From Candidatus Omnitrophota bacterium (lineage in GTDB: Bacteria; NPL-UPA2; BS750m-G34): a stretch of 34,244 bases of DNA. The stretch spans positions 1 through 34,244 of the forward strand of contig JADHWT010000002.1 of assembly GCA_016783345.1 (NCBI GenBank), given 5' to 3'. The notes below the pieces were generated by a model. It saw nothing but the letters and a program-made list of their open reading frames with translations, did no database searches and was not told where the DNA came from. Made by a program: the position numbers and the translations under genes. Positions within the stretch are counted from its first letter, which is position 1, and each line of letters opens with the position of its first letter. Of the stretch, positions 15,366 to 31,325 are shown piece after piece.

Positions 15366-15388
15366 AAAGAAAAATCCAGGAGAATGAT

Positions 15389-15445: not shown

Positions 15446-15495
15446 AAATCATATTGAAGTTATCGCGGAGCGATTTTCTTGTGAATAGAGGTACT

Positions 15496-16143: not shown

Positions 16144-16956
16144 ATGAAGCCCGCGAAAAGATTTGTTATACTGCTCACAGATTTTGGCCTAACCGACGGA
16201 TATGTCGGGACCATGAAAGGTGTCATCTCCAGTATAAGTCCGGAGGTAACTGTCTACGATTTAATCCATGAGATTCCTCCGCAGGATATTGAGGCCGCCG
16301 CTGTTGTGCTTTCCTCATCATATAGATTTTTCCCGAGGCAGAGTATCTTTGTGGCAGTGGTTGACCCTGGGGTGGGCAGCGAGAGGGCGATTATAGCATT
16401 GAAGACTGATTCATACATTTTTCTTGCGCCGGATAACGGGCTTTTGAGTTTAATTGCCGAAAGGGAAAATGTCCGCAGTGTTGTTAAGGTGGTAAACAAA
16501 AAATATTTTTTAAAAGATGTCAGCTCTACATTCCATGGCCGTGATATCTTTGCCCCTGTTGCAGGGTATCTTTCGCTTGGAGTGAGGATGGAAGAGATAG
16601 GAGAGCCTGTTCAGGATATAACAAAGCTCAGTCTATCCGAGGTAAGGATAGCGCCTCGCAGGTCTCTCACAGGCAGGGTAATATATATTGACAGATTTGG
16701 TAATATCATGACCAATATTAGTGAGAAGAATTTTTTGTCTTTCACTGAGGGAGATAAAACGCAGAAGATGGTTGCTGAGATAAAGAGAAAGACTGTTACC
16801 AAATTTGTAAATCACTATAATCAGGGTTTACCAGGAGAGCTTATTATGCTTATGGGCAGTAGTGGATATCTGGAGATATCTATAAATAAGGGCAGGGCCG
16901 GTGATATGCTTAAGACATCACCCGGGGATATGGTGGAGATAAAATGGCTAAATTGA
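16144..16956 (+). CDS. SAM hydroxide adenosyltransferase family protein (DUF62)
   Basis: LLTDFGLTDGYVGTMKGVI N-terminal signature, VVDPGVGS, and FHGRDIFAPVAG. Confidence 0.85.
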   Translation: MKPAKRFVILLTDFGLTDGYVGTMKGVISSISPEVTVYDLIHEIPPQDIEAAAVVLSSSYRFFPRQSIFVAVVDPGVGSERAIIALKTDSYIFLAPDNGLLSLIAERENVRSVVKVVNKKYFLKDVSSTFHGRDIFAPVAGYLSLGVRMEEIGEPVQDITKLSLSEVRIAPRRSLTGRVIYIDRFGNIMTNISEKNFLSFTEGDKTQKMVAEIKRKTVTKFVNHYNQGLPGELIMLMGSSGYLEISINKGRAGDMLKTSPGDMVEIKWLN

Positions 16957-17495
16957 TTTTTATTTTAGGCGGGGCAAGGAGCGGGAAAAGTTCCTTCGCC
17001 TGTAAATTAGCAGAAGACATGTGCCCTTCAATGGGGGATGTAGTTTATCTGGCTACGGCTGAGGTGACTGATGATGAGATGGCTCGCCGTATTGCCCGGC
17101 ATAAGGCCCGGAGGCCTTCCCATTGGCAGACTATAGAAGAGCCGCGCAATTTGGCAAGGATAACTAAAATACTTGGAGAGACAGAAAAAGTAGTCTTACT
17201 TGATTGTTTGACTATACTTTTATCAAATATAATATTAAGCGAAGTAAAGGATCAAAAAGACTTATATAAGCATGAAGAAAGATTAGTCAAAAGTTTTTCT
17301 TCTCTTGCTGAGGCAGCAGCGAAAAGCGCTTTTCCTGTGATTTTTGTATCTAATGAAGTTGGCATGGGGATATGTCCGGAAAATTATCTGGGGAGGGTCT
17401 TTAGAGATCTTGTAGGGCGAATAAATCAGGAGATATCAAGAAAGGCTGCGGAAGTATATTTTCTCCGCGCAGGGATTCCGCAGAAGATAAAATAA
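16944..17495 (+). CDS. cobU: bifunctional adenosylcobinamide kinase / adenosylcobinamide-phosphate guanylyltransferase
   Basis: P-loop ILGGARSGKSSFA, size 183 aa, and the C-terminal VSNEVGMGI motif typical of CobU/CobP. Confidence 0.85.
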   Translation: MAKLIFILGGARSGKSSFACKLAEDMCPSMGDVVYLATAEVTDDEMARRIARHKARRPSHWQTIEEPRNLARITKILGETEKVVLLDCLTILLSNIILSEVKDQKDLYKHEERLVKSFSSLAEAAAKSAFPVIFVSNEVGMGICPENYLGRVFRDLVGRINQEISRKAAEVYFLRAGIPQKIK

Positions 17496-17501
17496 GGTAT
17501 G

Positions 17502-17638
17502 TCCCTTGTCGCAGAAGATGTTGAGTAAAATGTTTTCAACTTTTTACTCAACGCGACTTCGGGATTAATTCGACCATACAATTTATGTTCACCTGCCGCT
17601 TTGCGGCGGTTTCATAAATTGTGGTCTCATTAAGGAGG
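17502..17638 (+). promoter_or_regulatory. repeated two-hairpin leader element, copy 2 (longest variant), ending in the SDR gene SD
   Basis: Same core as the other copies. The HP1 extension is GTTGAGTAAAA/TTTTACTCAAC. The HP2 tip is expanded by CTGCCGC-TTT-GCGGCGG. Confidence 0.85.
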
Positions 17639-17644
17639 TAATTT

Positions 17645-18466
17645 ATGTGTGATGAATTGTTTGAGCTGAAAGATAAGGTAGTGGTTATTACAGGCGGAGG
17701 AGGAGTGCTCTGCAGTACTATTGCTAAGGCCTTAGCCCAAAGGGGGGCAAAGGTCGCTATCTTGGATCTCAATGAAAAGGCTGCAAAGGATGTGGCTCAA
17801 GAGATTTCGAAGAACCAAGGAGAGGCCATCGGGATTAAGGCCGATGTATTAAAGAAAGACAGTCTTGAGAAAAGTCTTGAGTTTGTCCTTTCTAAATTCA
17901 AAAAAGTAGATATCCTCATCAATGGCGCCGGTGGGAATAAAAAAGAGGCTACCACTTCAGATGAACTTGATTTTTTTAATTTATCTGCTGACGCGGTAAG
18001 ATGGGTTTTTGATTTGAATTTCTTGGGGACATTTCTTCCGTCCCAGGTCTTCGGGAAGGAGCTGGTAAAACAGGGGAAAGGGATTATTTTAAATATCTCT
18101 TCCATGAATGCCTTAAGGCCCCTTACCCGCATCCCGGCCTATTCTGCAGCGAAAGCTGCCGTCAGTAATTTTACCCTGTGGCTGGCTGTGCATATATCAC
18201 AGAATTATTCAAAAAATATCAGGGTCAATGCAGTTGCCCCTGGTTTTTTCCTGACAGAGCAGAACAGGTTTCTTTTAATGGATGAAAAGACAAAGAAGTT
18301 TACCCCGAGAGGTCAAACAATTATTGGTCATACCCCTATGGAGAGGTTTGGTGAGCCTCTCGAACTGATCGGGACCGTTACCTGGCTTCTGTCCGATGCC
18401 TCAGCCTTTGTCCATGGGGTGGTTATACCTGTTGATGGCGGCTTTTCAGCATTTAGTGGGGTATAG
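17645..18466 (+). CDS. SDR family oxidoreductase
   Basis: ITGGGGVLC cofactor motif and catalytic YSAAK. The length and pattern resemble mannonate/gluconate-type SDRs, but the substrate cannot be assigned. Confidence 0.88.
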   Translation: MCDELFELKDKVVVITGGGGVLCSTIAKALAQRGAKVAILDLNEKAAKDVAQEISKNQGEAIGIKADVLKKDSLEKSLEFVLSKFKKVDILINGAGGNKKEATTSDELDFFNLSADAVRWVFDLNFLGTFLPSQVFGKELVKQGKGIILNISSMNALRPLTRIPAYSAAKAAVSNFTLWLAVHISQNYSKNIRVNAVAPGFFLTEQNRFLLMDEKTKKFTPRGQTIIGHTPMERFGEPLELIGTVTWLLSDASAFVHGVVIPVDGGFSAFSGV

Positions 18467-18478
18467 TGTAAGCGGTAA

Positions 18479-19648
18479 ATGTTAATTTTTGCTGACGAAA
18501 ATATCCCATTCGTAAGGGATGCCTTCAGGACATTTGGCGAAGTAGTCACATTTGCAGGCCGGGAAATAACGAGAGAAAAAATTAAAGACGGAGATATCTT
18601 ACTCGTCAGGACTGTGACCGGGGTCAATAGAGAACTCCTTGAAGGAACTAAAATAAAATTTGTAGCTACAGCAACAATCGGTATTGACCATATTGATACC
18701 GCCTATCTCAAAAAAAATGGAATTGGTTTTTCAAATGCCCAGGGCAGCAATGCCAATTCCGTATCAGAATACGTTATGACCGCCTTGCTCTGTCTCGCAA
18801 ATAGAATGGGTTTTCAACTTTCCCAAAAGAGTCTCGCAGTTATAGGCGTAGGTAATGTAGGAAGCAGGGTTGTAGAGATGGCTAAGGGACTCGGAATGGA
18901 TGTCCTGGAAAACGACCCGCCATTAGCCATGGAGACACGTGAGGTACGCTTTAAGAAAATAGAGGATGTAATAAAGTCAGATATCATAACCTTCCATGTC
19001 CCTCTCTCTTATAAAGGAAAGGACGCTACCTTTCATATGGTTGATGAAAAACTTTTATCCCAACTCAAAAAAGGCGCTATTCTTATCAATACATCCAGGG
19101 GAGGGGTTGTAGAAACAAAGGCCCTTTATGAGGCTATAAAGAAAAGGAATCTTTTAGCCTCTGTAATAGATGTCTGGGAAAATGAACCTGGGATAGATAT
19201 GGAGTTACTTAGAGAGGTAAGCATAGCAACACCCCATATTGCCGGCTATTCTTTTGACGGCAAGGTTAATGGAACGCGTATGATATATAATGCCTGCGCA
19301 GAGTTTTTTAAATTAAAACCAGGCTGGAGGATGGAATCGGTTATGCCAGAGGCCCCTGTTGGAGAGCTAAAAATAGAGACCAGGGGTACCCACAGGATGG
19401 CTTCGCCTAGAGATGAAGGAATGCTCTGGGATACTATCCGTAAGCTCTATGACATAGAGAGAGATGACAAGTCTATTAGAAAGATGTTAAACCTTAGAGG
19501 AGAAGAGCGCGGCCCTTATTTCGATCGCCTCCGTAAGGAATATCCCATCCGAAGGGAATTTTTCAATACTACGCTTACGCTGACGTTCACGTCATCAAAA
19601 AATTTTATAGACAAATTCCTATCCCTGGGCTTTAGACTTAAGATTTAA
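18479..19648 (+). CDS. pdxB: erythronate-4-phosphate dehydrogenase
   Basis: The N-terminus MLIFADENIPFVRDAFRTFGEV...LLVRTVTGVNRELLEG.KIKFVATATIGIDHID parallels E. coli PdxB (MKILVDENMPYARDLF...). A C-terminal dimerisation-domain-like extension is present. Confidence 0.83.
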   Translation: MLIFADENIPFVRDAFRTFGEVVTFAGREITREKIKDGDILLVRTVTGVNRELLEGTKIKFVATATIGIDHIDTAYLKKNGIGFSNAQGSNANSVSEYVMTALLCLANRMGFQLSQKSLAVIGVGNVGSRVVEMAKGLGMDVLENDPPLAMETREVRFKKIEDVIKSDIITFHVPLSYKGKDATFHMVDEKLLSQLKKGAILINTSRGGVVETKALYEAIKKRNLLASVIDVWENEPGIDMELLREVSIATPHIAGYSFDGKVNGTRMIYNACAEFFKLKPGWRMESVMPEAPVGELKIETRGTHRMASPRDEGMLWDTIRKLYDIERDDKSIRKMLNLRGEERGPYFDRLRKEYPIRREFFNTTLTLTFTSSKNFIDKFLSLGFRLKI

Positions 19649-19668
19649 AATTCTGAAGACCAATTTTG

Positions 19669-19709
19669 CTTGATTATATAGGAAAGTATATAAAGTGGAC
19701 TTAAGCTAT
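19669..19709 (+). repeat. 41-nt repeat, copy A (37/41 identical to 26001-26041)
   Basis: CTTGATTATATAGGAAAGTATATAAAGTGGACTTAAGCTAT versus CTTGATTGTATAGGAAAGGATAGAAAGTGGACTTGAGCTAT. Confidence 0.85.
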
Positions 19710-19727
19710 CAGCCAAAGGCTGATTTG
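19708..19727 (+). terminator. hairpin after pdxB (weak terminator candidate)
   Basis: ATCAGCC-AAA-GGCTGAT (19708-19724) followed by TTT. An overlapping alternative pairing AGCCAAA/TTTGGCT (19711-19730) also exists. Confidence 0.3.
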
Positions 19728-19729
19728 GC

Positions 19730-19758
19730 TTGACTTAGGGGGATATATTTTTTATAAT
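19730..19758 (+). promoter_or_regulatory. sigma70-type promoter of the aroA'-aroB' operon
   Basis: TTGACT (19730-19735), a 17-nt spacer, TATAAT (19753-19758). AAGGAGGG SD before ATG 19782. Confidence 0.65.
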
Positions 19759-19781
19759 CATTTTTAAAGGAGGGACAGGAG

Positions 19782-20573
19782 ATGATAGGGAAAGGTATTA
19801 GATTAGAGCGGATTATAGATAGAAATTCCGGACGTACTGTTATTGTCCCGATGGACCATGGGATTACAATGGGCCCTATTGCCGGCTTAATTGACATGAA
19901 GGTCACTATTGACAAGATGGTCAACGGTGGCGCCAATGCCATTGTTGTGCATAAAGGTATTGTGCGGGAAGGGCATCGCGGAACTGGTAAGGATGTAGGG
20001 CTCATCATACATCTCTCGGCAAGCACAATTATCGGGCCTGATCCCAATGCGAAGGTTGCTGTCTGTGAAGTAGAAGAGGCGATAAAATTAGGAGCAGATG
20101 CTGTTTCAGTCCACATAAATCTTGGCGCAGAGACAGAAGGAGAGATGTTAAGGCATCTGGGAAAAGTAAGCAGGGAATGTCAGCACTGGGGAATGCCGCT
20201 TGTAGCTATGATGTATACGCGCGGGAAAAAAGTCAAGAGTGAATATGACGTTAAACATATCAAACATGCAGCCAGGGTTGGCGCTGAACTCGGCGCAGAC
20301 CTGGTCAAGGTGAATTACACAGGGAGTGTTGACTCATTTAAAGAGGTAACCGAAGGCTGTCCTGTCCCTGTAGTTATTGCAGGAGGTGAAAAGGTAGAGA
20401 CAGATGATGCCCTTTTTAAGATGGTTGAGGGAGCGCTTAAGGCCGGAGCTAAGGGGGTCTCGATCGGCCGAAATACCTTCCAACATAAATCACCTGCGAA
20501 GGTAGTCGCTGCCATTGGTAAGATAGTCCATAAAAATTGCTCAGTGAGAGAAGCCTTAGGATTACTTAAATGA
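19782..20573 (+). CDS. aroA': DhnA-type class I aldolase, probable 2-amino-3,7-dideoxy-D-threo-hept-6-ulosonate (ADH) synthase
   Basis: [17 protein letters not shown]...GPI.GLID, GANA...[25 protein letters not shown] and WGMPL.AMMY.RG strongly resemble the MJ0400 family as I recall it. Adjacent to a DHQ synthase II gene. Confidence 0.8.
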
Positions 20574-20580
20574 GATTGCA

Positions 20581-21579
20581 ATGACAATGAAGAAGATCTG
20601 GGTAAATCTTATTCCATGGGATGAAGCGCTGGCCAGGGCAGCTATTGACAGCGGCGCTGAGGCTTTGCTTGTTGCAAAAGGTGACAGCCACAAGGCAAAA
20701 AAGATTGCAGGGGTAAAGACTGTCAGTGAAGACGGAGACATTGTCCTCGGGAAAGATGCGGAAGTCGTAGAGATAAAATCTAAAGCTGATGAGGTCAAGG
20801 CATCCGGGATTCCTAAAGACAGGATAGTTATCCTCCGCATGAAGGACTGGACTATCATCCCGTTAGAAAATTTGATTGCCCAGCGCGGTAATTTAGTAGT
20901 AGAGGTTACATCAGGGGAAGAGGCAAAGGTCATGACCGAGGTCCTGGAAAAGGGCGTAGACGGAGTGCTTTTTAATATAAGAGATAAAGAACAGCTTTGT
21001 AAAGGGATTAAACTTGTGCAGGGTTTTTCTCACCAGCTTTCACTTGTTAAGGCAAAGATTAAAGGGACCAAGGTCCTTGGACTCGGAGACAGGGCATGCA
21101 TTGATACCTGCACTATGATGAGACCGGGGCAAGGGATGCTTATCGGTAACACAGGCGGAGGTTTTTTTCTGGTGCACGCTGAGGTAGTTGAAAATCCATA
21201 CGTAGAATCAAGGCCATTTCGGGTCAATGCAGGAAGTCTCCACGCATATGTCCTTGTGCCCGGCGGCGGGACCAGGTATCTCTCAGAACTAAGGGCCGGG
21301 GATGAGGTCCTGGTTGTCGGCCATGACGGGCATACTGAAACTGCATTTATCGGACGGGTCAAGGTAGAGAAAAGGCCGATGTTTCTGGTTACGGCAGAGG
21401 CTTGTGGAAAAGACCTGTCCCTTGTTCTCCAGAATGCCGAGACCATTACCCTTACCACTCCTGACGGGAAGGCAGTACCTGTAACAAGCCTCAAGAAGGG
21501 TGATGAGGTAATGGCATATCTTGAAGAAGGCGGCCGCCATTTCGGGGTTAAGGTAGAAGAGACAATTATCGAAAGGTGA
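20581..21579 (+). CDS. aroB': 3-dehydroquinate synthase II (archaeal type)
   Basis: 332 aa. The N-terminal KKIWV...W....A..AI.SGA.ALLV layout and size fit the MJ1249/DHQS-II family. Operonic with the aldolase. Confidence 0.8.
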   Translation: MTMKKIWVNLIPWDEALARAAIDSGAEALLVAKGDSHKAKKIAGVKTVSEDGDIVLGKDAEVVEIKSKADEVKASGIPKDRIVILRMKDWTIIPLENLIAQRGNLVVEVTSGEEAKVMTEVLEKGVDGVLFNIRDKEQLCKGIKLVQGFSHQLSLVKAKIKGTKVLGLGDRACIDTCTMMRPGQGMLIGNTGGGFFLVHAEVVENPYVESRPFRVNAGSLHAYVLVPGGGTRYLSELRAGDEVLVVGHDGHTETAFIGRVKVEKRPMFLVTAEACGKDLSLVLQNAETITLTTPDGKAVPVTSLKKGDEVMAYLEEGGRHFGVKVEETIIER

Positions 21580-21588
21580 AGGCGGTAT

Positions 21589-21936
21589 TTGAAAAAGAGA
21601 TTACGTTTAACAGTTATTGAGCTCTGGCTTCTTCTCATTATGCTCGGGTCAATAATACTCACTATATGGCCGCAGCTTGAAGTGGTAAAAGAGGCGCGGG
21701 ACAAACAGGAATGCGTGGCTAATTTGCTTAGTATAATAATGGCCATCCGTCTATATGAAGCGAAAGAAGGGGTAGAGTATAACGACCGCGCTATAAAGGG
21801 ATTAGTAAGTAAGGGGTATCTCTCTGAAGAGCTTATCTGTCCTGCAACAGGTGACTATTATCGAATTGATCCTGAAGATGATCTGGCATTTTGTCCGAGC
21901 GGCAGACCAGGCCATAGATGGCCATTGCAGGAATAG
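21589..21936 (+). CDS. pilin/pseudopilin-like small protein with an atypical N-terminal motif
   Basis: TTG start. KKRLR-LTVIELWLLLIMLGSIILTI resembles the prepilin N-methylation/TM segment (xTLIEL, Glu at +5) but has Arg instead of Gly at -1. C-terminal Cys pair (CPATG...FCPSG). Confidence 0.5.
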   Translation: MKKRLRLTVIELWLLLIMLGSIILTIWPQLEVVKEARDKQECVANLLSIIMAIRLYEAKEGVEYNDRAIKGLVSKGYLSEELICPATGDYYRIDPEDDLAFCPSGRPGHRWPLQE

Positions 21937-22632
21937 GTGAAAGTTACAGCTATAGTGCCGGCAGCCGGGGCAGGTAAAAGGATGAGGCAGACAGTTTCTA
22001 AACCTTATCTATTGATCGGAGGAAAGCCGATCCTTAGTTATACCCTTGATGCCTTGAATCGTTCGGATGAGATACAGGAGATAATAGTGGTGACCATGGC
22101 CGGGGAGATTGATTTGTGTAAGAAGGATGTAGTAAAGCGGTTTAATTTTAATAAGGTTTCTGCTGTTATCCCCGGCGGGGAGAAAAGACAGGACTCAGTC
22201 TATAAAGGTTTAAAGAGTATAAAAAATGAAGTGGATATTGTCCTTATCCACGATGGGGTCCGTCCTTTTTTGAGTCAGAGGCTCTTGAAGGACGTTATAA
22301 AATGCGCTGCGCAATTTAAAAATGCAATTACAGCTATCCCTGTAAAGGATACCTTAAAAAAGATTGATAAAAAAGGCTGTGTGGAAGAGACTATTTCCCG
22401 TGATGCTGTCTGGCATGTCCAGACTCCGCAGGCCTTTGACTACCACCAGATTATGGAGGCGCATGAGAAGGCGTCCAAAGATAATTTTTATGGGACAGAT
22501 GATGCAGGACTGGTGGAGAGGTGCGGGTATCCGGTTAAGATTGTAGCGGGGACACCGCAGAATATAAAAATAACTATGCCGGAGGACCTCACTATGGCTG
22601 AAGCGATATTAGAGTTAAGTAGTAAAGATTAA
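21937..22632 (+). CDS. ispD: 2-C-methyl-D-erythritol 4-phosphate cytidylyltransferase
   Basis: GTG start. AIVPAAGAGKRM motif, IHDGVRPF, and VQTPQAF. Confidence 0.92.
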   Translation: MKVTAIVPAAGAGKRMRQTVSKPYLLIGGKPILSYTLDALNRSDEIQEIIVVTMAGEIDLCKKDVVKRFNFNKVSAVIPGGEKRQDSVYKGLKSIKNEVDIVLIHDGVRPFLSQRLLKDVIKCAAQFKNAITAIPVKDTLKKIDKKGCVEETISRDAVWHVQTPQAFDYHQIMEAHEKASKDNFYGTDDAGLVERCGYPVKIVAGTPQNIKITMPEDLTMAEAILELSSKD

Positions 22633-22640
22633 GTATTCGT

Positions 22641-23117
22641 ATGATAAAGGTAGGATATGGAGTAGATTTTCATCGCCTTGTGAAAGGAAGGAAACTTATT
22701 TTAGGGGGGATAGATATAGATTATCCTTTAGGTCTTGAAGGGCACTCAGACGCTGATGTGATTATACATGCAATAAGTGACGCAATCCTTGGAGGCGCGG
22801 GCCTCGGGGACATTGGAAAATATTTTCCTGAAACCCCGGAGTATAAAGACATATCAAGTATAGAGATTTTGAAGAGAGTAAACAGGATGCTTCCCGGAGA
22901 TGCATCTATTAACCACATTGACCTTACGTTTATCGGGGAGGAGCCGAAGATAGCGCCCTGCGCAGAAGAGATGAAGGGTAAGATTGCCAATGCCCTGGGC
23001 ATCAGGGGAGAGATGGTAAATATCAAGGCTACTACTACCGAGGGATTAGGCGCGGTTGGGGAGAAGAAAGGCCTGGGGTGCCAGGCTGTTGTTACACTGG
23101 AGGTGGGGAAAAAATGA
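22641..23117 (+). CDS. ispF: 2-C-methyl-D-erythritol 2,4-cyclodiphosphate synthase
   Basis: [30 protein letters not shown]. Confidence 0.95.
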
Positions 23118-23791
23118 AAAAAGAAATACAAGCTGTTTTTGAAAGAGATCCGGCAGCGCGTAATACCTTTGAGGTGATTTTGACCTATTCGGGACTCCAT
23201 GCTATATTCTTCTACCGTCTTTCCAATTTTCTCTTGCGCTTGAATGTCCCTGCTTTGCCAAGGTTTGTCTCACAGGTGGCGCGGTTTTTAACCGGTATTG
23301 AGATTCACCCGGGCGCCAGGATTGGAGAGGGATTGTTTATTGACCATGGAATGGGAGTGGTGATTGGCGAGACTTCTGTGATAGGAGATAACGTAACTCT
23401 TTTTCAGGGTGCTACTCTCGGCGGGACAGGCAAGGAAAAGGGCAAACGCCATCCCACCTTAGGGAATAATGTAGTCGTCGGAGCGGGGGCAAAGATACTG
23501 GGAGATATCACTGTCGGAGACAATGTCAATATCGGGGCTAATGCAGTGGTAATTAGAGATGTCCCTTCTAATTCTACTGTAGTAGGTGTTCCCGGCCGCA
23601 TAGCGCGCCATAAAGGGAAAAGGCGACCAGGTATTTCGCTTGACCATACGAATCTTCCCGACCCGATTGCAGAGAAGATCACGCAATTACAGGAAACGAT
23701 TGATGAGCTTGAAGAACATATGGAGTGCTGGAAGAAGGGCGTGCCATGTGCAGCTATTAAGGAAAAACAAAAAGAAAAAGGGGATAAATAG
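23114..23791 (+). CDS. cysE: serine O-acetyltransferase
   Basis: Start set at ATG 23114 ([15 protein letters not shown]), which makes an ATGA overlap with the ispF stop. Hexapeptide repeats [38 protein letters not shown]. Confidence 0.9.
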
Positions 23792-23794
23792 TCT

Positions 23795-25024
23795 ATGAAA
23801 AAAGGAATTGGTCTGGTATTAATCCTAATAATTATTACAGGCATAATAGGAGGTATTTTCTGGTATCAGAAAATAAAGACAAAGGGAGAGAGGGAGTTCT
23901 ATGCGGCAAAGAAACTTTATGAAGAAAAAAGATATGATGCTTCCTATCTTGCTTTTGACTCACTCCTGAAAGATTATCGTCAGGCAATATGGAGTGGCGA
24001 GGCGATATATTACGCGGGTAAAAATCTAAGTCTCCTTGGACGCGACAGCGAAGCAAAGGAGTACTGGCAGAGGCTTAAGGATCAATATGGCGATAGCATT
24101 CACGGGGAGGAGACAAATTTTTATATAGGACGCAGCTTCGAACGGGAAGGGGACGTAAAAAAGGCGAGGCCCTATTATGAAAAGGTCGTAAAAAAATTTC
24201 CTGCAAGTTCCCTGGTAGATGATGCGCTCCTGGGGCTCGGCCGTATATATGAAAAAGAAGGTGAAGTAGAGGATGCATTAGCAAGTATTGAGAAAGTAGC
24301 TGCAAATTTTCGAGAGACCCGGGAGGTTGCCCGGGTGATCCTCGATATAGCCGCCCTTTACGAAAAAAAGGAGGAATGGGTAAAATCACTGGACCTTTAC
24401 TATAAGGTGTGCAAAGATTTTCCCGAAGGAGACCTGGTTCAAAATGCAGAAGATGGTATAAGCCGTATCAATACCCACCTTATTTTTTCGCGTTATCCCA
24501 CAGAGGATAGTTTTATCTATAGAGTGGAAAAAGGCGATAGCCTTAGTTCTATCGCTAAAAAATTTAATACAACCATAGAGCTTATAACAGAATCAAACGG
24601 GTTAAAAACAACTATGCTTAAACCCGGACAGCGGCTTAAGATATTGGAAAGCAAGTTTAGTATAAAGGTAAGTAAAGGGAAGAATAAAGTATATCTTAAA
24701 AATAATGACAAACTCATCAAGGTCTACAGGGTCGCAACCGGTAAAGATAATTTAACCCCTGAAGGCAATTTTACTATTGTTAATAAACTCAAGGATCCTC
24801 CGTGGTATACCCCGGGAGCTATTATCCCCCCTGGAAGTCCTGAGAATATTCTGGGAAGCCGCTGGATTGGTATTTCAGAAGAAGGCTATGGTTTCCACGG
24901 GAGTAATAATCCGGCAGACATTGGTAAATATGTTACAAACGGTTGTGTGCGCCTTCGGGAAGAGGATGTCAAGGAGTTATATAAACTGGTGCCGGTTGGA
25001 ACGCCGGTAGAAATCATAAAGTAG
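23795..25024 (+). CDS. TPR-like / LysM / YkuD L,D-transpeptidase domain protein
   Basis: N-terminal TM segment and YbgF/TPR-like repeats. LysM (YRVEKGDSLSSIAKKFNTTIELITESNGL). YkuD catalytic motif FHGSNNP...GCVRL. Confidence 0.85.
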   Translation: MKKGIGLVLILIIITGIIGGIFWYQKIKTKGEREFYAAKKLYEEKRYDASYLAFDSLLKDYRQAIWSGEAIYYAGKNLSLLGRDSEAKEYWQRLKDQYGDSIHGEETNFYIGRSFEREGDVKKARPYYEKVVKKFPASSLVDDALLGLGRIYEKEGEVEDALASIEKVAANFRETREVARVILDIAALYEKKEEWVKSLDLYYKVCKDFPEGDLVQNAEDGISRINTHLIFSRYPTEDSFIYRVEKGDSLSSIAKKFNTTIELITESNGLKTTMLKPGQRLKILESKFSIKVSKGKNKVYLKNNDKLIKVYRVATGKDNLTPEGNFTIVNKLKDPPWYTPGAIIPPGSPENILGSRWIGISEEGYGFHGSNNPADIGKYVTNGCVRLREEDVKELYKLVPVGTPVEIIK

Positions 25025-25030
25025 AAAAAA

Positions 25031-25987
25031 ATGGCAAATAGTCTTGACTTTGAAAAACCTATTATAGAATTAGAAGAAAAGATAAAAGATCTCAGGGAAA
25101 TGGGCAGGTCCGGAAATATGGACCTATCCTCGGAGATTAATAATTTAGAAAAAAAATTAGGTGATGTCAAAACAAAGATATTTGCCGGTCTCACTGCCTG
25201 GCAGAGGGTGAAGTTAGCGCGGCATCCATTACGGCCTTATACCCTTGATTATATCAATTTAATTATGACAGATTTCATCGAGCTCTGCGGAGACAGGACA
25301 TTTGCCGATGATCCGGCCATTGTAGGAGGACTTGCCAAATTTAATGGCGAGGGAGTAGTAGTCCTGGGACACCAGAAAGGCAGAGACACCAGGGAGAATA
25401 TCCAACGGAATTTTGGCATGGCCCATCCCGAAGGTTATCGGAAGGCCTTACGCCTGATGAAGCTCGCAGAGAAGTTCAATAAACCCGTTATCTCTTTTCT
25501 GGACACCCCGGCAGCCTATCCGGGCGTAGGAGCAGAAGAACGGGGACAGGCTGCGGCTATTGCCCATAATCTTAAGGAGATGAGCGAGTTAAAGGTGCCT
25601 ATAATAGTTGTTGTCATCGGGGAAGGCGGAAGCGGAGGCGCATTAGGCATCGGGGTCGGCGACAGGATTTATATGCTGGAATATTCTATCTATTCTGTCT
25701 GTCCGCCGGAGGCATGCGCGGCTATCCTGTGGAGAGACAGGGCTAAGGCAGGAGATGCAGCCAAGGCCCTCGCTTTAACCAGCAAAGATTTGTTGAAGAC
25801 AGGGATTATTGATGAGATTATCCCCGAACCATTAGGCGGCGCCCACCGTCAGGCAAATGAGACAGCTCTAAAGATAAAAGAATATTTGATTAAGGGGCTT
25901 CAGGGATTAAGGGGATTAGATCACGAAACACTTTTAAAATTACGTTATGAAAAATATCGCTGTATAGGGAGTTTGACTGAAACATGA
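25031..25987 (+). CDS. accA: acetyl-CoA carboxylase carboxyltransferase alpha subunit
   Basis: FLDTPAAYPGVGAEERGQAAAIA and GEGGSGGALGIG motifs. Confidence 0.95.
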   Translation: MANSLDFEKPIIELEEKIKDLREMGRSGNMDLSSEINNLEKKLGDVKTKIFAGLTAWQRVKLARHPLRPYTLDYINLIMTDFIELCGDRTFADDPAIVGGLAKFNGEGVVVLGHQKGRDTRENIQRNFGMAHPEGYRKALRLMKLAEKFNKPVISFLDTPAAYPGVGAEERGQAAAIAHNLKEMSELKVPIIVVVIGEGGSGGALGIGVGDRIYMLEYSIYSVCPPEACAAILWRDRAKAGDAAKALALTSKDLLKTGIIDEIIPEPLGGAHRQANETALKIKEYLIKGLQGLRGLDHETLLKLRYEKYRCIGSLTET

Positions 25988-26000
25988 AAAACGGGCATAA

Positions 26001-26041
26001 CTTGATTGTATAGGAAAGGATAGAAAGTGGACTTGAGCTAT
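26001..26041 (+). repeat. 41-nt repeat, copy B (covers the RBS, GTG start and first 5 codons of the RsbW-like gene)
   Basis: 37/41 identical to 19669-19709. Confidence 0.85.
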
Positions 26042-26449
26042 AGCTTAATTAAATTAGAGGTCAGGAGTCATCCCCGGTATCTCCGGCTTATCCGGAATGC
26101 TACATATGATATAGCGCTGATATGCGGATTTACAGAGGATGAGGCCAAAGACCTCAGGCTCGTTATAGATGAGGCCTGCACAAATGTTATCAAACACAGT
26201 TACCGGCATGATTACAGCAAGCCGATTATTTTAAATTTTTTTCTATATGACGATAGATTTGAGATGCTCATAGAGGATTGCGGCAGGAAGGTCCGCCCAT
26301 CACAGATTCGATCAAGGGACATAGATAAGGTTAGGCCGGGAGGCCTGGGTGTTTATATTATAAAGAAACTTATGGATGTGATGGAATATGATCCTACCGG
26401 AAAAGATGGTCCGAGATTAAGATTGGTTAAGTACAGGAAGAAGTCGTAA
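26027..26449 (+). CDS. anti-sigma regulatory factor, RsbW/SpoIIAB-like serine kinase (HATPase_c)
   Basis: GTG start. N-box DEACTNVIKHSY and G-box RPGGLGVYIIKKLMD. 140 aa, the typical size. Confidence 0.8.
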   Translation: MDLSYSLIKLEVRSHPRYLRLIRNATYDIALICGFTEDEAKDLRLVIDEACTNVIKHSYRHDYSKPIILNFFLYDDRFEMLIEDCGRKVRPSQIRSRDIDKVRPGGLGVYIIKKLMDVMEYDPTGKDGPRLRLVKYRKKS

Positions 26450-26490
26450 GTAGTAAGTAATAAGTTATAAAAGCTTACTATAATGGAGTA

Positions 26491-26607
26491 TCCCTTGTCG
26501 CAGAAGATGTTGAGTAAAATTTCTTCGATTTTTTACTCAACGCGACTTCGGGATTAATTCGAGCATACACTTTATGAAACATAAAGTGCGCTCTCATTAA
26601 AAGGAGG
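26491..26607 (+). promoter_or_regulatory. repeated two-hairpin leader element, copy 3 (covarying variant), ending in the STAS gene SD
   Basis: Same HP1 as copy 4. HP2 carries two compensated base-pair swaps and an AAA tip. A TATAAT at 26479-26484 ends 6 nt upstream. Confidence 0.85.
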
Positions 26608-26611
26608 TTTT

Positions 26612-26947
26612 ATGGAGATTAATTCAAGAGAAGAAAACAATGTTAGTATAATTATTCTGGAGGGAGAAGTGGATATATCTTCCACAGACCTCATCCGGGG
26701 AAAACTCAAAAAGTTGATAGACGAAAAGAAAAAAGCAATTGTTATAAATCTGGCAAATGTCCCCTATATCGACAGTTCCGGTCTGGGTGTATTCGTAGAG
26801 ACAATGCAGGAGATGGGTAAATACGGCGGAGAATTAAAATTGGCGGGGTTGACTGATGACGTCAAAAAGGTCTTTGAATTAACACGGCTCACTAATTTTT
26901 TCAGCATCTTTGCCGAAGAAAAAGAGGCCATAGCGAGTTTTAAATGA
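26612..26947 (+). CDS. STAS-domain anti-sigma-factor antagonist (RsbV/SpoIIAA-like)
   Basis: 111 aa with a phosphorylatable-serine motif YIDSSGLGVF. Confidence 0.88.
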   Translation: MEINSREENNVSIIILEGEVDISSTDLIRGKLKKLIDEKKKAIVINLANVPYIDSSGLGVFVETMQEMGKYGGELKLAGLTDDVKKVFELTRLTNFFSIFAEEKEAIASFK

Positions 26948-28644
26948 GTCCGCGTAATCCCGGTAGTAATTTAGGGGCGCGTCTTGTAGAAAAGGGTCTT
27001 ATTACTAAAGAGGCCCTTGCAAAGGCGCAAAAGGCAAGTAAAAGGGGCACCCCTTTGCAAAAGACACTGGTAGAGCAGGGTAGTATCACTGAAGAAAAGC
27101 TTATTGACTTTATGGCTAAAGAACTTAATATCCCCTGTGTAAAGATGTCTGATTATGTCATAGACCCTAAGATTGTGAAGATAGTGCCGGAAAAATTAGC
27201 GCGGCATTATACTGTCATCCCGCTTTTTAAGGTCCTGGATACCTTGACCATAGCAATGGCTGACCCATCAAATTTCTATGCGATTGAGGATATTAAAATA
27301 AAGACAAAGTGCGAGTTAAACAAGGTGCTTGCATCAGAAAAGGATATCAATAAGGCTATAGACAAATATTATGCCGCCGGAGTAGAGATTATGGAAGAGG
27401 CCATTAAGGACCTTAAGGAGATCTCCCTTGAGCAAGAGGCAAAGGAGGAAGCAAGTCCCTCCCAGCTCCAGCATGATGCAGAAGATGCGCCTATTGTGAA
27501 ATTAGTTAATTCTTTTATTGCCCAGGCCATTAATCGCCGCGCTAGTGATATCCATTTAGAACCGTATGAAAAGGATCTCCGCATACGCTACCGCATTGAC
27601 GGAGTGCTTTACGAGGTGGCTTCACCGCCCAAGAATCTACAGGGGGCACTTGTATCACGTTTAAAGATTTTATCCCAGCTCGATATCGCCGAAAGGCGTC
27701 TTCCCCAGGACGGCCGTTTCCGCATGCGCATTAAAGATAAGTCCATTGATCTTCGTCTCTCTACCCTGCCTACGATATTCGGAGAGAAGGTGGTTATGCG
27801 AATCCTTGACAAAGGAAGTCTGGCCCTGGATATGAAAGACCTTGGTATGGAAGAGAATATGCTGGCTGGTTTTGAGAAGGCGATAGCATCTCCTTATGGG
27901 ATGGTGGTTGTGACCGGCCCCACGGGAAGCGGCAAGACAACGACCCTTTATTCTGCCTTAAATAAGGTCAATTCTGTAGGGAAAAATATTATTACCGTCG
28001 AGGACCCTGTCGAATACAGGATACACGGCATCAATCAGGTCCAGGTTCAGCCAAAGATCGGCCTGACGTTTGCTGCGGGGCTGCGTTCTATTTTACGGCA
28101 GGACCCTGATATTGTTATGGTAGGAGAGGTAAGGGACCTTGAGACGGCTGAGATAGCTATCCGGGCAGCACTTACAGGGCACCTTGTGTTTACTACCTTG
28201 CATACCAATGATGCCGTCGGGACACTGGCGCGCCTCGTGGATATGGGGATTGAGCCGTTTCTGGTTGCATCTTCCGTGGTCGTAGTAATGGCTCAGAGAC
28301 TGGTCAGGAGGATCTGTCCCGATTGCAAAAAAGAATATACACCGCCTCAAGAAATGCAGAAGATTATAAAAGAAAAATTTCCTGATAAAGATATAAAATT
28401 CTATAAAGGCGTGGGGTGCAAGAATTGTAACAACACCGGGTATCGCGGTAGAGTCGGGGTGCATGAGGTCCTCTCTATAACAGATGAGATAAAAGAGATG
28501 ATTATCAACCGTAAGACCCCTGACGAGATTGAGAAGGCAGCCAGGAAACAGGGTTTTATATCCCTTAGTGAGTGCGGCTTGCTCAAGGTGGCAAACGGCA
28601 TAACTTCTTTAGAAGAAGTCCACAGCTCATTTTTTGAAGTATAA
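26944..28644 (+). CDS. type II/IV secretion system ATPase (GspE/PilB family) with an N-terminal T2SSE_N domain
   Basis: Walker A GPTGSGKTTT, Asp box, Walker B/His box (VGEVRD...GHLVFTTLHTN), and tetracysteine CPDC...CKNC. ATGA overlap with the STAS gene. Confidence 0.92.
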   Translation: MSPRNPGSNLGARLVEKGLITKEALAKAQKASKRGTPLQKTLVEQGSITEEKLIDFMAKELNIPCVKMSDYVIDPKIVKIVPEKLARHYTVIPLFKVLDTLTIAMADPSNFYAIEDIKIKTKCELNKVLASEKDINKAIDKYYAAGVEIMEEAIKDLKEISLEQEAKEEASPSQLQHDAEDAPIVKLVNSFIAQAINRRASDIHLEPYEKDLRIRYRIDGVLYEVASPPKNLQGALVSRLKILSQLDIAERRLPQDGRFRMRIKDKSIDLRLSTLPTIFGEKVVMRILDKGSLALDMKDLGMEENMLAGFEKAIASPYGMVVVTGPTGSGKTTTLYSALNKVNSVGKNIITVEDPVEYRIHGINQVQVQPKIGLTFAAGLRSILRQDPDIVMVGEVRDLETAEIAIRAALTGHLVFTTLHTNDAVGTLARLVDMGIEPFLVASSVVVVMAQRLVRRICPDCKKEYTPPQEMQKIIKEKFPDKDIKFYKGVGCKNCNNTGYRGRVGVHEVLSITDEIKEMIINRKTPDEIEKAARKQGFISLSECGLLKVANGITSLEEVHSSFFEV

Positions 28645-28675
28645 AAGAGCGTATTTCCATTTTTCCATTTTTTAT

Positions 28676-28703
28676 TTGCAAAAATAGAATTATATGTTAT
28701 AAT
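28676..28703 (+). promoter_or_regulatory. sigma70-type promoter of the ROK regulator gene
   Basis: TTGCAA (28676-28681), a 16-nt spacer, then extended -10 TGTTATAAT (TATAAT at 28698-28703). Confidence 0.55.
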
Positions 28704-28735
28704 TACTTTGTGGACAATTTCTAATAAGTTTAAAA

Positions 28736-29866
28736 ATGAGGCCTATAATTTGTGACCATGGGTTAATGCGCAGGATTAACCGTGTAAGGATCCTTAACCT
28801 GCTTCGCTTACGGGACTCACTTTCACGTATTGAACTGACCCGGGAGACCGGGCTTGACGGGAAGACTGTGACAAACCTTACCCAGGAGTTATTGGCTAAG
28901 AGGTTAATAATTTCAGATGGATATGAAACCTCAAGCGGCGGAAGGAGACCGGAATTATTAAGGCTAAATAGCAATCTAAAACATACCATCGGGATTTATC
29001 TGGACCCGGATAAAATTATCGGGGTCCTGGTTGATTTAAGAGGAAATATTCTAAAAGAAGAAATTTTTTCTTTATTTAAAATCTCCAAAAGAAAATATAT
29101 CTTGTCAGGCATTAAAAAAATTACGCAATCTCTAATAGCTTGTACCACCCGCTCCAGGCTCCTCGGCTTGGGATTTGTGTTTCCCGGGATAATCGATAGG
29201 GATAAGGAGACTATTATTCAGTCTTCAAATCTACCTGTTCTTGAAGGGATAAGGATAAAAGAGTATTTTAGAAAAAATTTTTCATTACCTATAGAGATAG
29301 AAGACTCCTCCCGGGCAATGGCATTGGGAGAGAAATGGTTTGGCAGGGCTCAAGGCATAGACAATTTCGTGTTTATAGAGCTGGGTGTAGGAATTGGCTG
29401 TGCAATACTTAGTAGAAGTCAGCTTCATTATGGGGTGAGTCTCAGTGCAGGAGAGCTCGGCCATACTGTGGTAGATATAAATGGACCCCGTTGCAGATGC
29501 GGGCATAAAGGGTGCCTTGAGACAGTAGCCTCTAGCAGGAAGATACTGGAAAAGATATCCGGAAAGGGCAGGAAGGAGGCACAGAAGATTATTGCAGATG
29601 CAGGGTATTATATTGGTGTAGGAGTGAGCAACCTTGTCAACCTCTTAAATCCTTCCCATCTTATTATAGGTGGGATAGGTGGGGAGCTAAGTCTGGTAGG
29701 AGAAACTTTATTTAAGGCTATAGATAGAGCTATGAAAAAATATACTGTATCTTCATCATATAATGCGGTTCAGGTTATCCCGGCAGCCCTTGGAGAGAAA
29801 GGAGGTGCATTAGGCGCAGCTACACTTATTTTAAAAAAGGTATTTGAGTTAAAAGAATTGGAGTAA
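28736..29866 (+). CDS. ROK family transcriptional regulator (NagC/XylR-like)
   Basis: N-terminal wHTH (RINRVRILNLLR....SRIELTRETGLDGKTVTNLTQEL). ROK zinc motif GHTVVD..GP.CRCGHKGCLE. No obvious SD, so the start is uncertain. Confidence 0.85.
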   Translation: MRPIICDHGLMRRINRVRILNLLRLRDSLSRIELTRETGLDGKTVTNLTQELLAKRLIISDGYETSSGGRRPELLRLNSNLKHTIGIYLDPDKIIGVLVDLRGNILKEEIFSLFKISKRKYILSGIKKITQSLIACTTRSRLLGLGFVFPGIIDRDKETIIQSSNLPVLEGIRIKEYFRKNFSLPIEIEDSSRAMALGEKWFGRAQGIDNFVFIELGVGIGCAILSRSQLHYGVSLSAGELGHTVVDINGPRCRCGHKGCLETVASSRKILEKISGKGRKEAQKIIADAGYYIGVGVSNLVNLLNPSHLIIGGIGGELSLVGETLFKAIDRAMKKYTVSSSYNAVQVIPAALGEKGGALGAATLILKKVFELKELE

Positions 29867-29872
29867 TGGTAG

Positions 29873-29898
29873 CCGCAGGCTTTAGCCTGCGGTAATTT
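29873..29898 (+). terminator. hairpin terminator candidate after the ROK gene
   Basis: CCGCAGGC (29873-29880), loop TTTA, GCCTGCGG (29885-29892), then TAATTT (poor T-run). Confidence 0.5.
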
Positions 29899-29907
29899 AA
29901 AGGAGTA

Positions 29908-30032
29908 TCCCTTGTCGCAGAAGATGTTGAGTAAAATTTCTTCGATTTTTTACTCAACGCGACTTCGGGATTAATTCGACCATACAATTTATGTGCACGT
30001 TGTTTCATAAATTGTGGTCTCATTAAAAGGAG
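29908..30032 (+). promoter_or_regulatory. repeated two-hairpin leader element, copy 4 (canonical), ending in the DegT gene SD
   Basis: TCCCTTGTCGCAGAAGATGTTGAGTAAAATTTCTTCGATTTTTTACTCAACGCGACTTCGGGATTAATTCGACCATACAATTTATGTGCACGTTGTTTCATAAATTGTGGTCTCATTAAAAGGAG. Confidence 0.85.
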
Positions 30033-30038
30033 AAAATA

Positions 30039-31325
30039 ATGGTAAAAGAAAAATTAGCTATAGAAGGCGGTAAGGCAGTAGGAGAAGGCGTAACCTTTCC
30101 AGGCTGGCCTAATTTTACAGATGAGATTATAAACGCAGCAATGGAACCTCTTCGCACTGGCAAGGTCAATTACTGGACAGGTAAAAACGGTCAGGAATTT
30201 GAAAAAAAATTTGCTGAATGGAATGGTTCAAAATATGCCATCTCTACAACCAATGGCACCAGTGCCCTGCATGTGGCTCTGGCAGGACTTGAGATTGGGC
30301 CAGGGGATGAAGTAATTGTTCCTTCCTATACATTTATCGCTTCATCTTTTTGTGTGCTTCAGGCAGGTGCTATTCCTGTATTCGCAGATGTGGATGACAA
30401 AAAGACCCACTGTATATCTCCCAGGGATATTGAAGCAAAGATCACTAATAAAACAAAGGCCATTATCCCGGTGCACCTTTATGGCAATGTCTGTGACATG
30501 GATGAAATATTAGCTATTGCTAAAAAACACAATCTCTATGTCATAGAAGACTGCGCTGAGACGCACGGCGGTACATATAAAGGAAAGAAGGTAGGCACTA
30601 TGGGAGATGCAGGTGCTTTTAGTTTCTGTCAGTCTAAGTCATTTACAACTGGCGGTGAAGGAGGAATGGTCACAACTGACAATGAGGAAGTAATGTGGAG
30701 GTGTAAGTCTTTCCGTGACCATGGGTACGATGTCTCCAAGCGACTTAGTCTGATGGAATTAGAAGGAAAGCTTCCATATATACATAATATAGTTGGTTTT
30801 AATTACCGCATGACTGAAATGCAGTCAGCAATAGGGATAGCAGAACTTAAGAGATTTGATTCCTGGAACTTGCCCCGCAGGCAGAAAAATGGATCTGTAC
30901 TTATAGAAGAGCTAAAGGATTGTCCTTTAGTCATTGGCCTTCCTATTCACAACCAGGACAACAAGACAAATGGTTTCTTTGTTTTTCCTATTGTTGTGGA
31001 TATTGATAAATTTAATGTAGATATTGGTAAGTTGCGTGATACAATTGATGCTGAGAAGGTTCCTGTATGGAGATGCTTCTGGCCACAGTGTTATAAAGAA
31101 AAGGCCTTTCAGGAACACAATGGCTTTGGCAGGGCAAAGTTTCCTTTTAAGTCAAAGGAGTATACAAACCCTGCTTCTGTAAAGTATAATGAGGTTCAAT
31201 GCCCGAATTCTGCATGGCTTGAGGCGCGGACATTTATAACCTTGTGCCACCCCATGCTTGAGGAGAATCATATGCGACTAATTGCCAGGGCTATCAAAAA
31301 GGTAGTTTTAGGTCTGGTGAAATAA
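30039..31325 (+). CDS. DegT/DnrJ/EryC1/StrS family PLP-dependent aminotransferase
   Basis: NGTSALHVAL, IPVHLYG, the FSFCQSKSFTTGGEGG (Schiff-base Lys) pattern, and NYRMTEMQSAIG. Confidence 0.9.
   Translation: MVKEKLAIEGGKAVGEGVTFPGWPNFTDEIINAAMEPLRTGKVNYWTGKNGQEFEKKFAEWNGSKYAISTTNGTSALHVALAGLEIGPGDEVIVPSYTFIASSFCVLQAGAIPVFADVDDKKTHCISPRDIEAKITNKTKAIIPVHLYGNVCDMDEILAIAKKHNLYVIEDCAETHGGTYKGKKVGTMGDAGAFSFCQSKSFTTGGEGGMVTTDNEEVMWRCKSFRDHGYDVSKRLSLMELEGKLPYIHNIVGFNYRMTEMQSAIGIAELKRFDSWNLPRRQKNGSVLIEELKDCPLVIGLPIHNQDNKTNGFFVFPIVVDIDKFNVDIGKLRDTIDAEKVPVWRCFWPQCYKEKAFQEHNGFGRAKFPFKSKEYTNPASVKYNEVQCPNSAWLEARTFITLCHPMLEENHMRLIARAIKKVVLGLVK

Follow-up and report, generated by a model that had tools for sequence, protein, structure and literature searches.

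A probable dispersed double-hairpin repeat at Shine-Dalgarno sites of Candidatus Omnitrophota

Architecture of the element and conservation of its pairing

The DNA analyzed here (the window) is a stretch of 34,244 nt from a Candidatus Omnitrophota bacterium (GenBank assembly GCA_016783345.1, contig JADHWT010000002.1, positions 1 to 34,244 of the forward strand). Between an anti-sigma kinase gene and the STAS-PilB genes it carries a structured element of two hairpins, followed by the Shine-Dalgarno (SD) sequence of the STAS gene. This segment, 26490-26607, is probably a copy (copy 3 of four in the window) of a dispersed non-coding double-hairpin repeat, 60-140 nt long, that has lately multiplied in an Omnitrophota-like lineage. 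What is unusual is that it is strictly associated with the SD site and that this site is duplicated. The structured repeat family belongs to an uncultivated phylum, is absent from Rfam and from the literature found, and has not been described previously. Copy 3 comprises the following features.

26490-26554, + strand: hairpin 1, seen in the minimum-free-energy fold and by RNAalifold, with covariation in P3
26490-26494 with 26550-26554, + strand: helix P1, AUCCC with GGGAU, then internal loop UU/UUC
26497-26501 with 26542-26546, + strand: helix P2, GUCGC with GCGAC, then unpaired AGAAGAUG
26509-26541, + strand: P3, the optional inner hairpin
26555-26599, + strand: hairpin 2
26555-26558 with 26596-26599, + strand: helix P4a, UAAU with AUUA
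26559-26560 and 26594-26595, + strand: conserved UC/UC internal loop of hairpin 2
26561-26564 with 26590-26593, + strand: helix P4b, GAGC with GCUC
26565-26567, + strand: unpaired AUA facing the bulged C26589
26568-26576 with 26580-26588, + strand: helix P4c, CACUUUAUG with CAUAAAGUG
26577-26579, + strand: AAA loop of hairpin 2
26600-26607, + strand: SD AAAGGAGG, then spacer UUUU and the ATG of the STAS gene at 26612

The SD begins directly 3' of the base of hairpin 2, and TTTTATGGAG of this region is also present in the relative L039 (loci outside the window are given as L numbers). The sequence-only reading of the window had described two double-compensated swaps in hairpin 2 of copy 3, and both were confirmed: the pair 26563:26591 is G:C here and C:G in copies 1, 2 and 4, and the pair 26570:26586 is C:G here and A:U in the other three. 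The AAA tip and the identity of hairpin 1 with that of copy 4 held as well, the identity running from GGAGT, 5 nt before P1, through hairpin 1 and the linker. The bulged base 26589, C in copy 3, is U in the other window copies. When random substitutions were placed on copy 4 (2 in the 5' arm and 3 in the 3' arm), two double-compensated pairs, with no pair lost, were obtained in approximately 1e-3 of the trials. It had been argued from the two swaps, taken as independent events, that base pairing is under selection. The pairing is indeed conserved, but the swaps turned out to be lineage events of an element subfamily. The hairpin 2 variant of copy 3 (type B) recurs in L003, from another metagenome-assembled genome (MAG), ahead of a csp cold-shock gene, so the swaps did not originate at the STAS locus and copy 3 marks a subfamily. 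Hairpin-templated mutation could also have produced the two swaps in a single step. Base changes that are paired between copies of one genome are not in themselves an indication of a dedicated regulatory RNA.

The window contains exactly four occurrences each of a conserved 20-mer core and a conserved 21-mer core, every one of them on the + strand, against an expectation of 0. Further copies were sought by exact-match pattern scans, which were strand-blind and excluded the SD from the pattern. The final set comprises 19 distinct copies: the four of the window, three in the Candidatus Omnitrophota MAG CSMAG_2088 and 12 in metagenome contigs. The metagenome scan yielded 32 matches, about 20 of them chance ones without the 5' half, and a match in an Uhrbacteria contig (L004) from the genome scan was discarded as a chance match within a coding region. 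The scan of viral contigs gave 0 matches, and blastn of copy 3 against plasmids and phages gave no match. In Rfam 15 only the FMN riboswitch at 10028-10184 matched the window at the gathering threshold, and a permissive scan (E up to 10) over 11900-30200 gave nothing overlapping any of the four copies. The covariance model R1 detected the four copies in the 34-kb window versus no clear copy in 79 kb of relatives' loci, where it was run with filters off. The sole marginal match in the latter (22 bits) was a diverged copy, located in L051, whose hairpin 1 is foreign and whose type A hairpin 2, including the UC/UC loop, is clearly homologous.

Alignment of the 19 copies showed a shared architecture of two adjacent hairpins, with the SD directly after P4a. 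In hairpin 1, P1 (AUCCC/GGGAU), the internal loop UY/UUC and P2 (GUCGC/GCGAC) lead to the unpaired AGAAGAUG and the optional P3; in hairpin 2, P4a (YAAU/AUUR) and the UC/UC loop are followed by P4b, then by a small loop with unequal sides, and finally by P4c, which varies, and its tip. An inner hairpin is either there in full or missing altogether: two copies carry one additional hairpin beyond P3, and in L024 the entire interior of hairpin 1 is replaced by a 5-nt loop. Standard pairs fill 97.9 % of the cells over 28 pairs, and 9 pairs are changed on both sides. None of 500 shuffles reached the observed covariation score (0/500), and slid controls were only 25-41 % paired. Covariation is strong in P3, P4a and P4b, and RNAalifold, which had been proposed as a check, independently predicted P1, P2, P4a and P4b from the alignment of copies. 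The fold of each copy beats its own shuffles by far (z from -3.4 to -7.5). The sequence of hairpin 2 is wholly different between the clades and its pairing is always kept, while the mismatched loops UY/UUC and UC/UC are conserved in both clades, the latter also in the diverged L051 copy.

The compensated swaps might instead be a mutational by-product of intrastrand template switching (quasipalindrome correction) and no evidence of selection. In templated mutation of the Ripley type a change in one arm of a palindrome can be copied to the other arm, giving perfect compensation in one step. Consistent with such an origin, both swaps of copy 3 need transversions and have no G-U intermediate, the helices are nearly pure Watson-Crick (15 G-U among 735 predicted pairs, 2 %), copies differ by inversion of the P3 loop (UUC in L028 and L035, GAA in L005), and whole inner hairpins appear or disappear cleanly. 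However, mismatched loops and bulges (UC/UC, AUA/U) persist uncorrected, which argues for constraint, and hairpin 2 stays paired despite its entirely clade-specific sequence. We consider a pure by-product possible, albeit the less probable account. Selection and template switching are not mutually exclusive, and templated mutation within the palindromes may yield part of the apparent compensation.

The caution that pairing could be selected at the RNA or at the single-stranded DNA level was borne out. In 18 of the 19 copies the antisense strand folds at least as well as the sense strand, the conserved loops reading GA/GA and GAA/RA on that strand, and this, together with the scarcity of G-U pairs, makes the two levels indistinguishable. 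The constraint on pairing may come from the copying machinery, acting on hairpins in single-stranded DNA, or from the need of the insert to fold on itself as RNA.

Several finer readings of the structure were discarded. A sequence-specific reading of P1 and P2 was withdrawn since their invariance was forced by the exact-match patterns and hairpin 1 of L051 differs. A pseudoknot between an unpaired GAAGA and the P3 loop UCUUC could form in some copies but was rejected, because L005, L015 and L018 have this loop in an inverted or altered form and copies without P3 do not have it at all. The 5' strand of P1 pairs with the SD over 4 bp only. A leader peptide MLSKISSIFYSTRLRD starting at an internal ATG (clade 1) was also rejected: its frame, length and stop differ between the clades, there is no SD spacing, and four copies are without the ATG. 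At 26507-26557 of the window the ATG in the unpaired AGAAGAUG opens a short open reading frame (ORF), encoding MLSKISSIFYSTRLRD in copies 3 and 4, which is probably incidental.

Empty sites, SD repeats and downstream genes

All four window copies are missing at the syntenic loci of close relatives, where the spacers are 3-20 nt long. The sites are as follows; the protein compared and its percentage are given in brackets.

12059-12155, + strand: copy 1, ribBA-ribH, with a short hairpin 1 (no P3), hairpin 2 of type A, then the SD; gap of 120 nt in the window, spacer of 17 nt in L054 and L050 (RibH 90 and 84 %)
17498-17635, + strand: copy 2, cobU-SDR, a precise 138-nt insertion relative to L047; gap of 149 nt in the window, spacer of 11 nt in L047 (RibH 91 %)
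26490-26607, + strand: copy 3, kinase-STAS; gap of 162 nt in the window, spacer of 3-20 nt and no model match in L039, L040, L045 and L046 (STAS 86, 77, 72 and 65 %)
29906-30032, + strand: copy 4, between the ROK gene and the DegT gene; gap of 172 nt in the window, spacer of 17 nt in L053 (DegT 84 %)

At the copy 2 junction L047 reads ...AAAATAAGGAGGTAATTTATG, whereas the window reads ...AAAATAAGG, then the insert TATGTCCC...CTCATTAAGG, then AGGTAATTTATG. The insert splits the resident SD, and TAAGG stands on both sides (17493-17497 and 17631-17635). Copy 4 is flanked by AAAGGAG at 29899-29905 and 30026-30032, and L053 has a single AAAGGAGG at this site, placed between TAA and ATG (TAA, then AAAGGAGG...ATG). 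Copy 3 has an imperfect direct repeat, AATGGAG at 26482-26488 upstream matching AAAGGAG at 26600-26606 downstream in 6 of 7 positions; the upstream AATGGAG is a partly decayed copy of the SD-like direct repeat. New copies land in the short spacer before a gene, in the orientation of that gene and inside or beside the SD. At copies 2 and 4, the two sites with precisely readable junctions, the insert has the resident SD on either side, so that an intact SD stays beside the start codon. A duplicated or rebuilt SD would keep the downstream gene translatable, which may be the condition of survival for insertions in a compact genome with spacers of 3-20 nt. The split and duplicated SD hints at an unusual target choice or at strong filtering for insertions that rebuild the ribosome-binding site (RBS). 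Such pairs of empty and filled sites provide clean before-and-after material for studying the tolerance of very compact genomes to insertions within operons.

All 19 copies have the orientation of the gene that follows, whose start codon is 1-15 nt past the UCAUURA tail, and in 18 of them the SD is located between the tail and the start codon. The exception, L013 (1503-1493, - strand), abuts the start codon of rplN without an SD (UCAUUGAA-AUG). The diverged copy in L051 likewise abuts a start codon without an SD at 12940, before ribE (UCACUU-AUG). The unit therefore need not include the SD. The genes that follow the copies are unrelated to each other and include ribH, genes of SDR, STAS anti-sigma antagonist and DegT proteins, csp, a nagB-like gene, fabZ, fabF, rplN, likely rpsK, rpmI, rbfA, xseB and genes of lipoproteins and a pilin-like protein. 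A same-strand ORF was found upstream of 16 copies, at a distance of 3-40 nt in 13 of these and 3-23 nt in 10. Such short gaps make the element mainly an intercistronic spacer; in a few cases (L003, L005, L006) it is a segment of the 5' untranslated region (5' UTR). The element would be transcribed within the mRNA in either position and may fold there into two neighboring helices without sequestering the SD. The idea that it acts as an insulator of the RBS was abandoned because the predicted accessibility of the region -15..+3 (0.45-0.67 with the element) is no higher than in the orthologues at empty sites (0.22-0.77).

The element also behaves as a dispersed repeat with respect to its own modules. 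Hairpin 2 subtypes common to different genomes are joined to differing forms of hairpin 1, and type C occurs both with and without P3 (L005, L006, L032). L005 and L032 are orthologous on the upstream side (divergent tRNA-Leu(CAA), spacer, element), and the genes right after the SD differ, which places the rearrangement breakpoint at the element. In L005 (4340-4720, - strand) a spacer with TGATATAAT precedes the element with P3 and a gene of a 117-aa protein, and in L032 (1055-1318, - strand) a spacer with GGAGATAAT precedes the element without P3 and fabZ. The covariance model can be used to mask such repeats in annotation and to flag recent points of rearrangement.

The view that the element is a leader dedicated to the STAS-PilB genes was not supported. 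Its highly structured build directly upstream of the SD would suit a riboswitch or attenuator specific to these genes, a processing site or a self-cleaving ribozyme. However, a gene-specific cis-regulatory leader was rejected as the element is missing from four syntenic kinase-STAS-PilB loci of relatives and precedes unrelated genes, there is no Rfam match at E up to 10, and no U-run lies behind hairpin 2. The replacement of AGAAGAUG and P3 by a 5-nt loop in L024 indicates that there is no conserved catalytic or ligand core. Taken together, a riboswitch or ribozyme is very improbable.

Another alternative is a plug-in regulatory leader resembling CREN/REP2, in which one trans-acting protein or small RNA would recognize the element as a functional mRNA leader and each insertion would recruit a gene into a common post-transcriptional regulon, so that the spread and the function would each be genuine. 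In its favor, the element invariably has the sense orientation and keeps a fixed register with the SD. The UY/UUC and UC/UC loops are conserved in both clades, with UC/UC also in L051, and several downstream genes are related to growth or cold (csp, rbfA, rpmI, fabF, fabZ, ribosomal proteins). REP2 offers a precedent (PMC3184786; PMC9031163). However, the gene set is functionally incoherent overall (ribH, SDR, STAS, DegT, xseB, lipoproteins), the pairing carries no strand signal (2 % G-U and an antisense strand that folds equally well), the predicted accessibility of the RBS is unchanged and no candidate partner was identified. A plug-in leader is hence rather unlikely; if it were true, each hop would rewire a gene into the common regulon.

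Several observations weigh against the interpretation of the element as a mobile dispersed repeat. P1 and P2 are invariant across the copies, and as the scan patterns exactly matched the P1 and P2 strands, this invariance is an artefact of ascertainment. The searches covered genome fragments only, and neither a transposase nor a donor or autonomous element was found in the DNA examined. The left end aligned locally with the reverse complement of the right end no better than the shuffled null in all 19 copies, so there is no sign of terminal inverted repeats. The flanking repeats are unequal (5 nt at copy 2 and 7 nt at copy 4) and are not evident for most metagenome copies; a target duplication of the transposase type is thus not established, and recombination at SD microhomology would look alike. 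Finally, an RNA-binding factor that recognizes the element, and with it a real regulatory role, could account equally well for the conserved mismatched loops and the fixed register with the SD.

For the dispersed repeat, mobility may be provided by a transposase, by recombination at SD microhomology or through a circular intermediate. It is a speculative proposal, rather improbable in our view, that the SD itself is the attachment site of a mobile non-coding cassette, which seeks out translation starts, duplicates the SD on entry and so is harmless in operons, or else that the element is a phylum-specific plug-in leader read by one trans-acting factor. The register with the SD, fixed in 19 of 19 copies, and the conserved mismatched loops are compatible with these readings.

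The site of copy 1 is of separate interest. Three lineages have each acquired a different hairpin insert in the 17-nt ribBA-ribH spacer, namely the double-hairpin element, a hairpin of REP-like type and a palindrome rich in A+T (GCATGCAGATATAAT...ATTATATCATGCAT); L047 and L049 each have a different insert at this position, and the spacer looks like a hot spot for palindromic insertions. The respective coordinates are 12040-12159 in the window, 4800-4866 in L047, 3589-3679 in L049, 2309-2325 in L050 and 2537-2553 in L054. A canonical FMN riboswitch (10028-10184, 100 bits) lies ahead of ribE-ribBA-ribH and hence copy 1 is situated within a riboswitch-controlled operon.

The TATAAT box upstream of copy 3

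The sequence-only reading had also proposed that a perfect TATAAT could make the element of copy 3 the exact 5' end of a primary transcript. The box is present at 26479-26484, 6 nt before T26491, and GGAG follows; as had been noted, no -35 sequence was found, nor is there a TG extension. The start proposed is less convincing, as the promoter scan gave no sigma-70-type site before any of the four window copies, although the same scan found good sites at 15336-15365, 19730-19758 and 28675-28703, and the promoter is graded weak. The claim that the other copies lack an equally placed -10 proved incorrect: TATAGT, TAAAAT and TAATTT occur in copies 1, 2 and 4, ending 7-11 nt before P1. Over the whole set, TAnnnT hexamers end 3-13 nt upstream of 11 of the 19 copies, in comparison to 6.3 +/- 2.0 in shuffles (P about 0.02), an enrichment confounded by the conserved UAU before P1.

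The orthologous spacer of L040 (STAS 77 %) is GATATAAAGGGAGG, and the TATAAT-GGAG of the window is most simply explained as old SD-proximal sequence left upstream of the insert. Judged from this spacer, TATAA at copy 3 is probably ancestral and once adjoined the SD. A stretch of approximately 28 nt (GTAGTAAGTAATAAGTTATAAAAGCTTAC, 26450-26478) separates the kinase stop codon from TATAAT; it contains short GTAA/TAAG repeats and has no counterpart in the 3-20-nt spacers of the relatives.

A promoter-coupled stabilizer of the 5' end would start transcription at about 26490 from this TATAAT, with hairpin 1 as a 5'-terminal stem-loop protecting the primary STAS-PilB transcript. The perfect box ending 5 nt ahead of A26490, the enrichment of TAnnnT in 11 of the 19 copies and the presence of some copies in true 5' UTRs fit this model; L006 has TTGCCA-17-TACAAT approximately 25 nt upstream and L005 has TGATATAAT approximately 50 nt upstream. 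These good promoters, however, start transcription 18-50 nt upstream of the element and not at it. Most copies lie 3-23 nt behind an upstream ORF, and at the window copies there is neither a -35 nor a TG extension, the scan is empty and TATAA is probably ancestral. Such a stabilizer is clearly unlikely. Copy 3 may hold a weak internal -10. As a dispersed repeat the element would put about 160 nt between the kinase gene and the STAS-PilB genes, uncoupling the latter, and might contribute a weak -10 as well as some protection of the mRNA end; its effect on the STAS-PilB genes is probably small.

Comparison with known repeat families

By analogy of description, the element appears to be a new member among structured interspersed repeats like REP2/CREN and bcr1, presumably unrelated to these in sequence and located in a new phylum. 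Neisseria REP2/CREN (Parkhill 2000; Morelle 2003) is 120-150 bp long, has no terminal inverted repeats, contains two internal inverted repeats predicted to form stem-loops and an RBS at the 3' end and immediately precedes many unrelated ORFs (reviewed in PMC3184786), and its presence ahead of a given gene varies between strains (PMC9031163). The Omnitrophota element shares the lack of terminal inverted repeats, the two internal stem-loops, the RBS at the 3' end, the position directly upstream of unrelated ORFs and a presence before a given gene that differs among relatives. REP2 also carries a promoter and an ATG, and contact-dependent co-regulation has been shown for it (PMC3184786). In the Omnitrophota element, in contrast, similarity stops at the SD, before the ATG, and a promoter is not evident, the -10-like enrichment being weak, with no -35, and many copies being intercistronic. 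Its SD-flanking direct repeats have not been reported for REP2 in PMC3184786 or PMC9031163. As REP2 belongs to a different phylum, the likeness is one of description and no sequence relationship is expected.

The bcr1 repeat of the Bacillus cereus group (Okstad 2004; Klevan 2007; Kristoffersen 2011) is ~155 bp long, forms two stem-loops independent of each other, is flanked by direct repeats of 5 bp, differs in its sites among related strains and keeps its structure through compensatory base-pair changes (summarized in PMC3184786). The Omnitrophota element resembles it, in kind only and by description, in its two stem-loops kept by compensatory changes, its short flanking direct repeats and its sites that vary between close relatives; bcr1 has no transposase of its own, and none was found for the Omnitrophota element in the DNA examined. 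The flanking direct repeat of bcr1 is TTTAT, whereas those of the Omnitrophota element are SD pieces of varying length. As far as PMC3184786 states, bcr1 has no fixed link with start codons and no fixed orientation with respect to the gene that follows.

The modular elements BOX of Streptococcus pneumoniae and the Correia/ERIC-type MITEs (miniature inverted-repeat transposable elements) have optional inner modules, are co-transcribed and can alter expression or mRNA stability (PMC3049150). The modular build, the optional inner modules and the tight folding are shared with the Omnitrophota element. However, these elements have terminal inverted repeats and fixed target duplications (Correia) and no fixed link to the SD, and they are enriched away from sites between co-transcribed genes. 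A classical MITE (Correia, RUP) was rejected, as terminal inverted repeats are at the null level in 19/19 copies. Potential target duplications amount to TAAGG (5 nt) at copy 2, AAAGGAG (7 nt) at copy 4 and an imperfect 6/7 match at copy 3, most metagenome copies having none.

Elements of the REP/REPIN (RAYT) and IS200/IS605-derived types are recognized as single-stranded-DNA hairpins in which mismatched or bulged bases serve as specificity marks, and they occur in many copies per genome, often inside operons. The IS200/IS605-derived type has similar subterminal hairpins at its two ends and inserts beside a fixed short target, which is not duplicated. The Omnitrophota element is likewise a short extragenic palindromic sequence without terminal inverted repeats. 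In contrast to both types, its two hairpins are unlike each other and SD-like direct repeats flank it; the 3' junction always adjoins (A)GGAG, a possible target, and conservation does not extend to the 5' flank. The DNA fragments examined showed no RAYT or TnpA gene. Identity with REP/REPIN was rejected because the required build, a GTAG-type tetranucleotide and a short G+C-rich stem, is missing from the element.

An integron attC site is a single long imperfect hairpin with RYYYAAC ... GTTRRRY at the 3' end of mobile cassettes. This identity was rejected, since hairpins 1 and 2 of the element are separate, GTTGAGT...ACTCAAC is confined to the optional P3, where its order is wrong, and the flanking genes are syntenic housekeeping genes. 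An intrinsic terminator or attenuator was discarded as hairpin 2 is followed by UCAUURA and the SD, and no terminator-like site was called at any copy. Membership in any Rfam 15 family (riboswitch, ribozyme, leader or small RNA) was dismissed for want of a match at the copies.

Two other repeats were noticed in the neighborhood. The REP-type build is found in a separate insert at 29867-29898 (TGGTAG and a G+C-rich palindrome, CCGCAGGC-TTTA-GCCTGCGG), which follows the stop codon of the ROK gene directly, lies just 5' of copy 4 and is missing in the syntenic L053. GGTAGTCGCAGGC...GCCTGCGG, a longer form, is found ahead of ribH in L047 (4805-4845) and L048 (8593-8633), and the 5' flank of copy 1 retains AATGGTAGA, perhaps a remnant of such an insert. 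The second repeat, CTTGATTRTATAGGAAAGKATAKAAAGTGGACTTRAGCTAT, is 41 nt long and occurs in two copies that are 90 % identical. One, at 19669-19709, lies in the spacer before an aldolase-like gene, upstream of the good promoter at 19730-19758. The other, at 26001-26041, overlaps the GTG start (26027) of the anti-sigma kinase gene, where in the relatives the kinase gene overlaps the end of accA instead.

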